Positions 35,062 to 35,370 of a DNA stretch of 39,665 nucleotides are shown piece after piece. Under the pieces are notes generated by a model. That model made no database searches and had not been told where the DNA came from. It saw nothing but the letters and a program-made list of their open reading frames with translations. Within the stretch, counting starts at the first letter, position 1, and each line of letters opens with the position of its first letter. Made by a program: the position numbers and the translations under genes. Origin of the DNA: a virus; the IMG/VR virus record IMGVR_UViG_3300033148_003693, positions 1 to 39,665 of that record. One strand, 5' to 3'.

Positions 35062-35370
35062 TTAGCCGTAGCCGTTGCCGTTGCCGTAGCCGTAGCCGTT
35101 GCCGTCGCCGTAGCCGTTGCCGTTGCCGTAGCCGTTGCCGTTGCCGTTGCCGTAGCCGTAGCCGTAGCCGTCGCCGTAGCCGTTGCCGTTGCCGTTGCCG
35201 TTGCCGTTGCCGTTGCCGTAGCCGTTGCCGTCGCCGTAGCCGTTGCCGTTGCCGTAGCCGTAGCCGTTGCCGTCGCCGTAGCCGTAGCCGTTGCCGTCGC
35301 CGTAGCCGTAGCCGTTGCCGTTGCCGTCGCCGTTGCCGTCACGGGTTTTAAATGTTATTAAATTTTCCAT
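35062..35370 (-). CDS. Low-complexity repeat protein: MENLITFKTR + 46 x (Asn/Tyr/Asp)-Gly dipeptides
   Basis: ATG start with a 10-aa unique N-terminus. 13-nt overlap with the upstream gene. Stop immediately after the last repeat. See findings for the frame ambiguity. Confidence 0.5.
   Translation of the reverse strand: MENLITFKTRDGNGDGNGNGYGYGDGNGYGYGDGNGYGYGNGNGYGDGNGYGNGNGNGNGNGNGYGDGYGYGYGNGNGNGYGNGNGYGDGNGYGYGNGNGYG
35065..35340. repeat. Tandem array of 46 perfect hexamers GCCGTN (N = T x22, A x17, C x7, never G)
   Basis: Every unit parsed by hand. 230 of 276 positions are invariant. About 69% GC within an AT-rich genome. Confidence 0.98.

Follow-up and report, generated by a model that had tools for sequence, protein, structure and literature searches.

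What is a perfectly periodic, GC-rich array doing in an AT-rich viral genome, and does it encode a protein? The question is raised by a viral contig of 39,665 nt (IMG/VR record IMGVR_UViG_3300033148_003693, positions 1 to 39,665; hereafter the window), in which 46 uninterrupted copies of the hexamer GCCGTN form a minus-strand open reading frame (ORF) of glycine alternating with Asn, Tyr or Asp (Gly-X). We conclude that the array is very probably a coding Gly-X gene and belongs to a two-gene cassette together with a gene of the DUF6948 family. For the locus as a whole we favour, with moderate confidence, a disordered repeat gene that evolves by slippage and is coupled to the gene of an Sm-like protein. 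The features concerned are the following.

35065..35340, minus strand: hexamer array, GCCGTN on the plus strand and NACGGC on the coding strand, encoding (Asp/Asn/Tyr-Gly)46.
35062..35370, minus strand: Gly-X dipeptide-repeat gene of 102 aa with a 10-residue unique N-terminus (MENLITFKTR); close relatives and hundreds of further loci have a homologous ORF at this position and in this frame.
35358..35744, minus strand: DUF6948 gene (Pfam match), 128 aa from the ATG at 35744, which is preceded by the Shine-Dalgarno sequence AAAGGAAG.
35358..35370, minus strand: 13-nt overlap of the two genes (ATGGAAAATTTAA); the repeat gene starts at an ATG that shares its TG with the conserved C-terminal Trp codon of DUF6948 (A-TGG).

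An earlier note on this DNA had described the array from its letters, and a recount reproduced every descriptive statement (46 perfect units, base counts, 69% GC, the Gly-X ORF and the 13-nt overlap). At the variable position, T occurs 22 times, A 17 times and C seven times, and G is absent. Tandem Repeats Finder reported a period of 6 with 45.8 copies as well as a weaker higher-order signal of period 24. The GC content is 69.2% in the array versus 35.5% in the window contig. The minus-strand ORF 35370..35062 consists of MENLITFKTR and 46 X-Gly dipeptides (X is Asn in 22, Tyr in 17 and Asp in 7), and its stop codon abuts the last unit. Glycine alternates strictly with X in 46 of 46 units, as in silk-like or prion-like sequences. 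The protein is acidic and aromatic, and its only basic residues (Lys8 and Arg10) are both in the N-terminus. Inspection of its sequence revealed no recognisable signal peptide, and the protein is probably cytoplasmic.

Every one of the 46 Gly codons is GGC, and C is the third base of every X codon. Across the 29 long ORFs of the window, GGC makes up 12% of the Gly codons and NAC 29–37% of the Asn, Tyr and Asp codons; independent draws from this usage would produce the array codons with a probability of ~1e-64. The codon anomaly of the array is real. The length of 46 units is that of the assembly and should be treated with caution, because metagenomic contigs often end at such arrays. Many contigs start or end in or beside an array (L006, L026, L028, L040, L043, L058, L059, L077, L167, L169, L171, L173 and L178).

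Within the window, the (Thr-Ala)n frame of the minus strand is likewise open, and the ORF list contains no plus-strand ORF of ≥30 aa across the array. Arrays elsewhere point to the frame under selection. An exact search for six consecutive GCCGTN units matched at least 120 IMG/VR contigs with GC contents from 33% to 70%, and nearly all of the matches listed translate in the frame of the window into small proteins with a short unique N-terminus followed by (Gly-[Tyr/Asn/Asp/Ser])n. This search favours the codon choice of the window, and a degenerate search with (GGN-NAY)x10 was run to offset the bias. It returned at least 120 matches; among the matches listed, 75 were GGC-NAC and 45 had other encodings such as 47 units of GGA-NAT (L140), 38 units of GGC-NAT (L137), GGA-NAC (L151, L156) and GGG-NAC (L128, L160). 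All alternative encodings hold Gly-[N/Y/D/S] in one frame. The frame is also open in close relatives with 72–78% identical DUF6948, one of which uses GGA throughout (L172) and another a mixture of GGA and GGC (L170), and several subfamilies carry conserved N- or C-terminal domains in frame with the repeat.

The peptide pattern is thus kept while the nucleotide motif differs, which indicates selection for the Gly-X frame and no need for a fixed DNA or RNA motif; the domain fusions likewise fix the frame as Gly-X. The earlier note had argued for Gly-X as the coding frame, and across differently coded arrays and relatives only this frame is indeed conserved. Its suggestion that a DNA or RNA motif is required is contradicted: GGA, GGG or GGT and NAT codons encode the same peptide pattern in other arrays, on which grounds a universal DNA motif was ruled out. 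Rfam and tRNA scans of the window found nothing.

Two finer rules for X had been proposed from the window. Over 7,377 units, X is Tyr in 35%, Asp in 27%, Ser in 17.5% and Asn in 13%, with every other residue below 2%. The proposal that His is harmful, and therefore missing, does not generalise: close relatives (L174–177) have His-rich arrays and L015 and L023 contain His as well, though His makes up only 1.2% of X overall. The proposed order of Asp, then Asn, then Tyr is nominally non-random in the window, where D→N occurs in 6/7 and Y→D in 5/6 cases (joint permutation p ~0.003, in a post hoc test on a pattern already noticed), but the family as a whole does not show it; pooled D→N transitions there reach 0.77 times the expectation. 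The longest repeated block in the window array is no longer than in shuffles (p=0.15). Probably, the order in the window reflects local duplication history.

Far from being a singular oddity, the array is one case of a widespread pair of genes. In an iterated search of viral contigs, 109 of 157 array loci had a DUF6948 homologue directly upstream in the same orientation, and a further 25 of the 157 were not assessable, with less than 500 nt of upstream sequence. In the opposite direction, in a search of GTDB genomes that was made independently of the arrays, a Gly-X array started ~10–100 nt past the end of the DUF6948 match in ~68 of 80 DUF6948 loci; at least five of the 12 array-less loci were at a contig edge. 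Hosts of the pair include Bacteroidota, Firmicutes, Proteobacteria, Cyanobacteria, Planctomycetota, Acidobacteriota, candidate phyla radiation (CPR) lineages and some archaeal bins of metagenome-assembled genomes. The pair is also present in cultured phages (Pectobacterium phage Ymer, Ralstonia phage NK-7, Iodobacter phage PhiPLPE and Chlorobiaceae phage CV-1-33). A literature search on DUF6948 found nothing. The pair, which is conserved and very common, with hundreds of phages and prophages carrying it, is apparently unstudied.

The two genes are arranged in a characteristic way. Start and stop overlap by 13 nt in 25 loci, 19 nt in 16, 4 nt in 14, 1 nt in eight and 16 nt in seven, and all of these values equal 1 modulo 3. 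In the overlaps of 13, 16 and 19 nt, the ATG mostly lies on the conserved terminal Trp codon of DUF6948. The window has the full arrangement, with the Gly-X ORF directly 3′ of DUF6948 on the same strand and an overlap of 1 modulo 3. Its 13-nt overlap is the commonest value of the family and recurs in L170, L172, L174–177 and CV-1-33. A Shine-Dalgarno sequence precedes both flanking genes but not the repeat gene. The missing Shine-Dalgarno sequence together with the overlap geometry suggests termination-reinitiation coupling and co-expression, and we consider that DUF6948 and the repeat gene are probably translated as a coupled pair. The coupling to the upstream gene that the earlier note had read from the overlap is therefore strengthened by the same geometry in relatives.

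In the window, the repeat is not covalently part of the upstream protein, as each has its own ORF and the frames differ. At locus L015, one continuous polypeptide comprises both DUF6948 (Pfam E=3e-23) and the repeat. We also considered programmed frameshifting as a means of fusing DUF6948 to the repeat and rejected it: no canonical slippery heptamer was seen in the overlap when read in the DUF6948 frame, and frameshifting is not needed because most loci examined have an in-frame ATG.

The protein upstream of the array matches Pfam PF22253 (DUF6948) with 89.6 bits (cut-off 27, E=1.5e-25). We collected 552 DUF6948 homologues; all 120 of the 120 listed carry PF22253, and their length is ~125 aa. 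A longer GTG-initiated ORF reaches 35864, but this start is probably not used, because the strong Shine-Dalgarno sequence precedes the ATG at 35744 and the homologues are ~125 aa long. One homologue of 146 aa (P0104) has a called ORF that continues into a (Asp/Glu/Leu-Met)n tail. Judged from the peptide, this tail may be a Gly-X array translated in another frame, which would mean that gene callers can mis-handle arrays.

An AlphaFold2 model of DUF6948, built with 55 homologues, had a predicted local distance difference test (pLDDT) score of 91.4 and comprised a short helix, five beta-strands and a helix inserted between strands 3 and 4. The predicted structure has the hallmarks of the Sm fold, namely an N-terminal helix and a strongly bent five-stranded beta-sheet. 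In a Foldseek search of the PDB with this model, the best 50 matches were nearly all Sm/LSm proteins (archaeal SmAP and eukaryotic Lsm/Sm), and the top ten had target-normalised TM-scores of 0.63–0.77 with E ~1e-3. In a viral structure library, the model matched other DUF6948 proteins and, more weakly, entries named 'RNA binding protein' and 'Sm-like domain containing protein'. A similarity to POP6/Alba was attributed to chance, as the E-value rose from 0.003 with a single sequence to 0.058 with a profile and the match disagrees with the predicted fold. We describe DUF6948 as having a predicted Sm-like fold and not as a member of the Sm family.

How did the array come to lack synonymous variation? 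Four contigs from different samples have 100% identical DUF6948 DNA and 96–100% identical downstream DNA, yet their arrays measure 228, 252, 276 and 276 nt. Between these arrays there are indels of 6, 18 and 42 nt, and most substitutions fall on the first base of the X codon. Among relatives, the ORFs differ in length by 24 and 48 nt, and all indels seen are multiples of 6. Hypervariable length relative to the flanks is thus a finding made in the relatives and not in the window itself. The same was seen in a second subfamily (>89% identical to the query), whose proteins range from 183 to 265 aa; in 23 that were aligned, the difference in length fell almost wholly in the Gly-X stretch. With regard to the earlier note, relatives do carry the array, length-variable in frame, with differences in multiples of 6, an open Gly-X frame and synonymous differences between arrays (L172, L170), and its suggestion that slippage or homogenisation lies behind the zero synonymous variation agrees with the in-frame indels between near-identical loci.

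Codon homogeneity was quantified in 70 arrays that had been found through DUF6948 and were thus chosen regardless of codon usage. In 57 of the 70, one Gly codon occupied ≥90% of the units. Mean entropy at the three bases was 0, 0 and 0.23 bits for the Gly codon and 1.02, 1.00 and 0.20 bits for the X codon. Low synonymous and high non-synonymous diversity (~fivefold in bits) is accordingly a family-wide property. In-frame slippage or unequal recombination would homogenise the codons and so explain the zero synonymous variation, and we consider slippage the likely cause. Judging from the sequences, selection seems to keep the Gly periodicity and a mixture of Tyr, Asp, Asn and Ser at X.

The preferred codons are a separate matter. 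Encodings of the type GGY-NNY with C in at least one third base predominate among the arrays. The minimum free energy of the native array RNA was −77 kcal/mol, versus −47±6 kcal/mol for synonymous recodes and −109 kcal/mol for shuffles, and the least structured encodings (GGA/GGG-NAT, about −6 kcal/mol) are rare in nature. Selection for unstructured mRNA was ruled out, as the native array is more structured than random synonymous recodes. Candidate ideas for the GGC preference are that GC-rich, partly self-pairing units are prone to slippage, or that Shine-Dalgarno-like GGAG or GGGG is avoided.

Taken together, these results led us to the following proposal. The pair would act early in infection as part of a replication/recombination operon. 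The short unique N-terminus would dock the repeat protein onto an oligomer of the Sm-like protein, and the Gly-X stretch, which is probably disordered, would serve as a detachable low-complexity tail. Such a tail could provide multivalent, Tyr-driven self-association, or could act as an acidic and aromatic nucleic-acid mimic that modulates the binding of RNA or single-stranded DNA. Slippage in units of 6 nt or multiples thereof would keep the frame, change the length rapidly and homogenise the codons. That the repeat protein is a detachable tail or partner of the Sm-like protein is a tentative proposal, made because of the coupling to the Sm-like protein, the single fusion and the use of the repeat elsewhere as a variable-length linker before an effector domain.

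A bolder version is that diverse phages carry a split, tunable Hfq-like chaperone, in which DUF6948 forms a ring and a separate, length-evolving tail drives condensates or gates the ring by mimicry; the slippage-prone array would then let the length of the tail, and hence its valency, vary quickly. We regard this version as doubtful. A more exotic one adds that the ring would also bind the repeat in its own mRNA, which would explain both the codon homogeneity and the GGC bias.

Several observations weigh against our interpretation. About 15–20% of the assessable arrays have no adjacent DUF6948 gene. An in-frame fusion was found in only one of ~245 loci (L015), which makes for a thin Rosetta-stone argument, and the N-terminal peptides of the repeat proteins, which would have to dock, are not conserved across the family. 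The Sm assignment comes from a predicted structure with Foldseek E ~1e-3, and neither phmmer nor a profile search of PDB sequences gave an Sm/Hfq match to DUF6948, so that sequence motifs do not corroborate the fold. Two features are not accounted for by slippage alone: GGC is the most used Gly codon in 54 of the 70 arrays, some of them from loci of 28–37% GC, and the first and second X-codon bases stay diverse, which needs added selection for a mixed composition. Finally, we infer the physical link of the two proteins, as well as the roles in nucleic-acid binding, condensates and mimicry.

Family, database and literature searches turned up no characterised protein of this form, in agreement with the earlier note. 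The closest parallels are Sm-type proteins with low-complexity extensions. In eukaryotes, the tails of Sm/LSm proteins, such as the RG/GR dipeptide repeats of SmB/D1/D3 and the tail of Lsm4, promote higher-order assembly. They resemble the phage pair in combining an Sm fold with a dipeptide-repeat or prion-like extension; unlike the phage tail, which is Asp/Tyr/Asn-Gly and separately encoded, they are basic (Arg-Gly) or Q/N-rich and covalent. The Hfq of Acinetobacter baumannii and A. baylyi has an Sm core with a long, disordered, Gly- and aromatic-rich tandem repeat and acidic residues; its GGFGGQ repeats are functionally required, and in Acinetobacter their number matters (PMC11617691). In contrast to this Hfq, the phage repeat is a separate coupled gene (fused only in L015) with a Gly-X unit instead of GGFGGQ, and DUF6948 has no sequence similarity to Hfq and is only presumed to bind RNA. 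In T4-type phages, an LSm-like fold has been predicted for early proteins that are suspected of a role at the RNA level (GoF, MotB.1 and Frd.2; PMC12152347). They are, like DUF6948, small phage proteins with this predicted fold, but the abstract of that report describes no Gly-X repeat partner for them. An Sm-like fold with a Gly-rich low-complexity tail would accordingly be of a known kind, and its division into two coupled genes would be new.

If our interpretation is correct, the cassette is among the more widespread uncharacterised gene pairs in tailed phages and a natural example of an Sm/Hfq-like fold encoded apart from its low-complexity tail, in two stoichiometrically coupled genes. 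The long-standing question of how disordered Gly-rich Sm/Hfq tails function would then be directly testable, as deletion, shortening or recoding of the tail would leave the core intact. Pectobacterium phage Ymer and its relatives, Ralstonia phage NK-7 and Iodobacter phage PhiPLPE are cultured carriers usable for such experiments. The arrays are, moreover, a clean natural example of concerted evolution.

Among the other explanations, the one that fares best is that the repeat protein acts alone as a former of silk, amyloid or condensates, its adjacency to DUF6948 reflecting co-regulation only. Silk fibroin and (X-Tyr)n peptides share the strict alternation between Gly and a small or polar/aromatic residue, the NK-7 homologue is labelled 'fibroin heavy chain-like protein', and GYGYGYG and (X-Tyr)n peptides self-assemble into fibrils (PMC8163036, PMC11093263). 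The arrays without a DUF6948 neighbour, and those fused to unrelated domains, also fit a protein that works by itself. The idea of a prion-like or condensate-forming protein, raised by the earlier note, is plausible. Unlike silk fibroin, however, the phage protein has Asn, Tyr or Asp instead of Ala or Ser at X, is small and probably cytoplasmic, and belongs to a phage replication operon. The two genes co-occur in ~83–85% of loci in both search directions, the start/stop overlap on the Trp codon implies tight co-expression, and AlphaFold yields no ordered model for the repeat (pLDDT ~23 for the Gly-X stretch of the related protein P0121, a value that is uninformative on assembly). Action of the repeat protein on its own is unlikely on this evidence.

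A largely neutral, selfish expansion by slippage on a tiny, merely tolerated ORF would account for the extreme length variation among near-identical phages and for the homogeneous codons, and the preferred encodings tend towards more self-pairing potential, as expected of slippage-prone repeats. It would not account for the Gly periodicity, the restricted X alphabet and the position after DUF6948, which are kept across many phyla and codon encodings. This retention calls for purifying selection on the protein and renders a neutral expansion improbable.

The reverse possibility is that coding is secondary and the array works as a nucleic acid, with (NACGGC)n as a platform for the Sm-like protein (autoregulation) or for a host factor. 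Sm/Hfq proteins do bind short repeated RNA motifs, as in the binding of ARN repeats by Hfq. Within arrays, synonymous sites are far less variable than non-synonymous ones, and GGC is strongly preferred whatever the GC content of the genome. Yet there is no shared nucleotide motif, with deviating arrays occurring even in some close relatives, and it is the Gly-X peptide pattern, together with the open frame and the in-frame fusions to domains, that stays constant. There was also no Rfam match, and the RNA structure is not unusual either way, as its folding energy lies between those of recodes and shuffles. We therefore consider a role as nucleic acid quite improbable.

We hold it to be highly doubtful that the array is a phase-variable contingency locus, in which slippage switches or tunes expression. 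The earlier note had raised this possibility, and one part of it stands: as in known loci of this kind, a hypermutable intragenic tandem repeat shows length polymorphism between near-identical genomes. The part that does not stand is the switch. The unit is a multiple of 3 and all indels are multiples of 6, so that length shifts without a change of frame and the gene cannot be turned off; in addition, the array lies inside an ORF and not in a promoter.

A glycine-rich precursor of a ribosomally synthesised and post-translationally modified peptide (RiPP) or microcin, with DUF6948 as its recognition partner, would likewise have a short unique N-terminus followed by a Gly-rich core, but the window core consists only of G, N, Y and D and so lacks Cys, Ser and Thr as targets of modification, a scan of nine neighbouring ORFs gave no modification, export or immunity genes, and the cores are very long (up to >50 units) and highly variable in length, so this explanation is very remote. 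Hardly credible at all is an assembly artefact or a true frame of (Thr-Ala)n or (Ala-Val)n: short-read assemblies do often break at arrays, (Thr-Ala)n is open and one GenBank record uses (Met-Ala)n, but equivalent arrays are found across hundreds of independent assemblies as well as in the deposited genomes of cultured phages such as PhiPLPE (EU876853), identical arrays come from independent samples (L175 and L177), and the alternative frames give different peptides under other codons, leaving only Gly-X conserved.

Returning to the coupled cassette, we examined its genomic setting. It lies inside a long minus-strand operon with Pam3 gp33-like and gp34-like genes, an SNF2-family helicase and a family-A DNA polymerase (PolA). 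A promoter-like site is located upstream at 36875..36848, and no terminator-like site was found between 34500 and 37300. Two copies of a direct repeat bracket the cassette.

35745..35767, minus strand: 23-nt direct repeat (AACCAATAACAAAAGGAAGTAAA, which contains the Shine-Dalgarno sequence), upstream copy, immediately 5′ of the DUF6948 start.
35027..35049, minus strand: the same 23-nt direct repeat (AACCAATAACAAAAGGAAGTAAA), downstream copy, between the stop of the repeat gene and the ATG of the next gene (35024).

The two copies are exact, and a search with the 21-nt core, allowing three mismatches, gave two matches versus 0.02 expected by chance. A different repeat, of 28 nt, brackets the cassette of L172 (in the flanks of 3001–3620), and terminator-like hairpin-plus-T-run sequences flank the cassettes of PhiPLPE (L261) and Ymer (L166). 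These bracketing repeats and flanking hairpins suggest that the DUF6948 and Gly-X genes move as a module. Directly upstream of DUF6948, a minus-strand ORF of 65 aa at 35746–35943 has two CxxC pairs and is zinc-ribbon-like. A small CxxC..CxxC ORF occupies the same position in L170, with no BLAST similarity to that of the window, and the small upstream ORFs of relatives are mutually unrelated, so that a conserved third gene is unsupported. The window has no close reference genome: nothing near-identical to the DNA of the locus was found in a search of 50,697 phage genomes, and the terminase is only ~24% identical to that of any cultured phage.

In public records the cassette is annotated inconsistently. 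Both genes are 'hypothetical' in Ymer, the repeat gene of NK-7 (L260 1023–1436) has its fibroin-like name in GenBank, the 81-aa Gly-X ORF of PhiPLPE (L261 984–1229) is left unannotated, and in CV-1-33 (L262 991–1248) the (Met-Ala)n frame is annotated, though there is an open Gly-X ORF that has a 13-nt overlap with DUF6948. Some entries of a related subfamily are named 'colicin E3' in nr, a low-complexity artefact. Two further database matches were rejected as well, namely an NCBIfam 'serine-rich' match (far below threshold and due to low complexity) and a Pfam TrAA12 match (34.8 bits), which falls in a glycine-rich stretch and is compositional. The PADLOC profiles of anti-phage defence components gave no match, and literature searches with repeat strings such as GYGDGYG and DGYGDG found nothing on phages. 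Arrays also break short-read assemblies. Missing annotations, wrong frames and the 'fibroin-like' and 'colicin E3' labels are points that annotation pipelines could correct.

Gly-X stretches also occur in larger proteins. One subfamily with 1,728 database matches combines the N-terminal peptide MTLDDKIKAFLSV, a variable Gly-X linker and a conserved C-terminal domain of ~150 aa with the motif YFYDWHHRLTGSC..GRKQFA; its members are 183–265 aa long overall and are likewise found downstream of DUF6948 (L021, L025, L041, L044, L048, L089, L090 and L115; proteins P0121–P0240). The ~150-aa domain had no match in Pfam, PHROG, NCBIfam or PADLOC, and its AlphaFold model was of moderate quality (pLDDT ~70) with no Foldseek match in the PDB. 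At L063 this domain follows DUF7666 and a Gly-X stretch. A Cys-containing domain of ~60 aa (..VVTVVDVLDTGACIDGV..) precedes the repeat at nine loci (L010, L019, L029, L035, L042, L067, L076, L113 and L116). Two of these, L067 and L113, have identical N-terminal domains followed by 22 and 49 repeat units, respectively.

Two to four tandem paralogous Gly-X genes with near-identical N-termini were observed at L002, L055, L017, L066, L084, L104, L109 and L112; at L002, four copies start with MKEKHNMNNNG. At L034 (5055–6063), a protein of 331 aa has a (Gly-Asn)n run in a glycine-rich linker and ends in ...DDDDIPF; an acidic tip of this kind is typical of single-stranded DNA-binding (SSB) proteins. 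In the window itself, Tandem Repeats Finder reported other tandem repeats that are A-rich, at 5738–5821 (period 15, 5.9 copies) and 9763–9792 (period 12, 2.5 copies).

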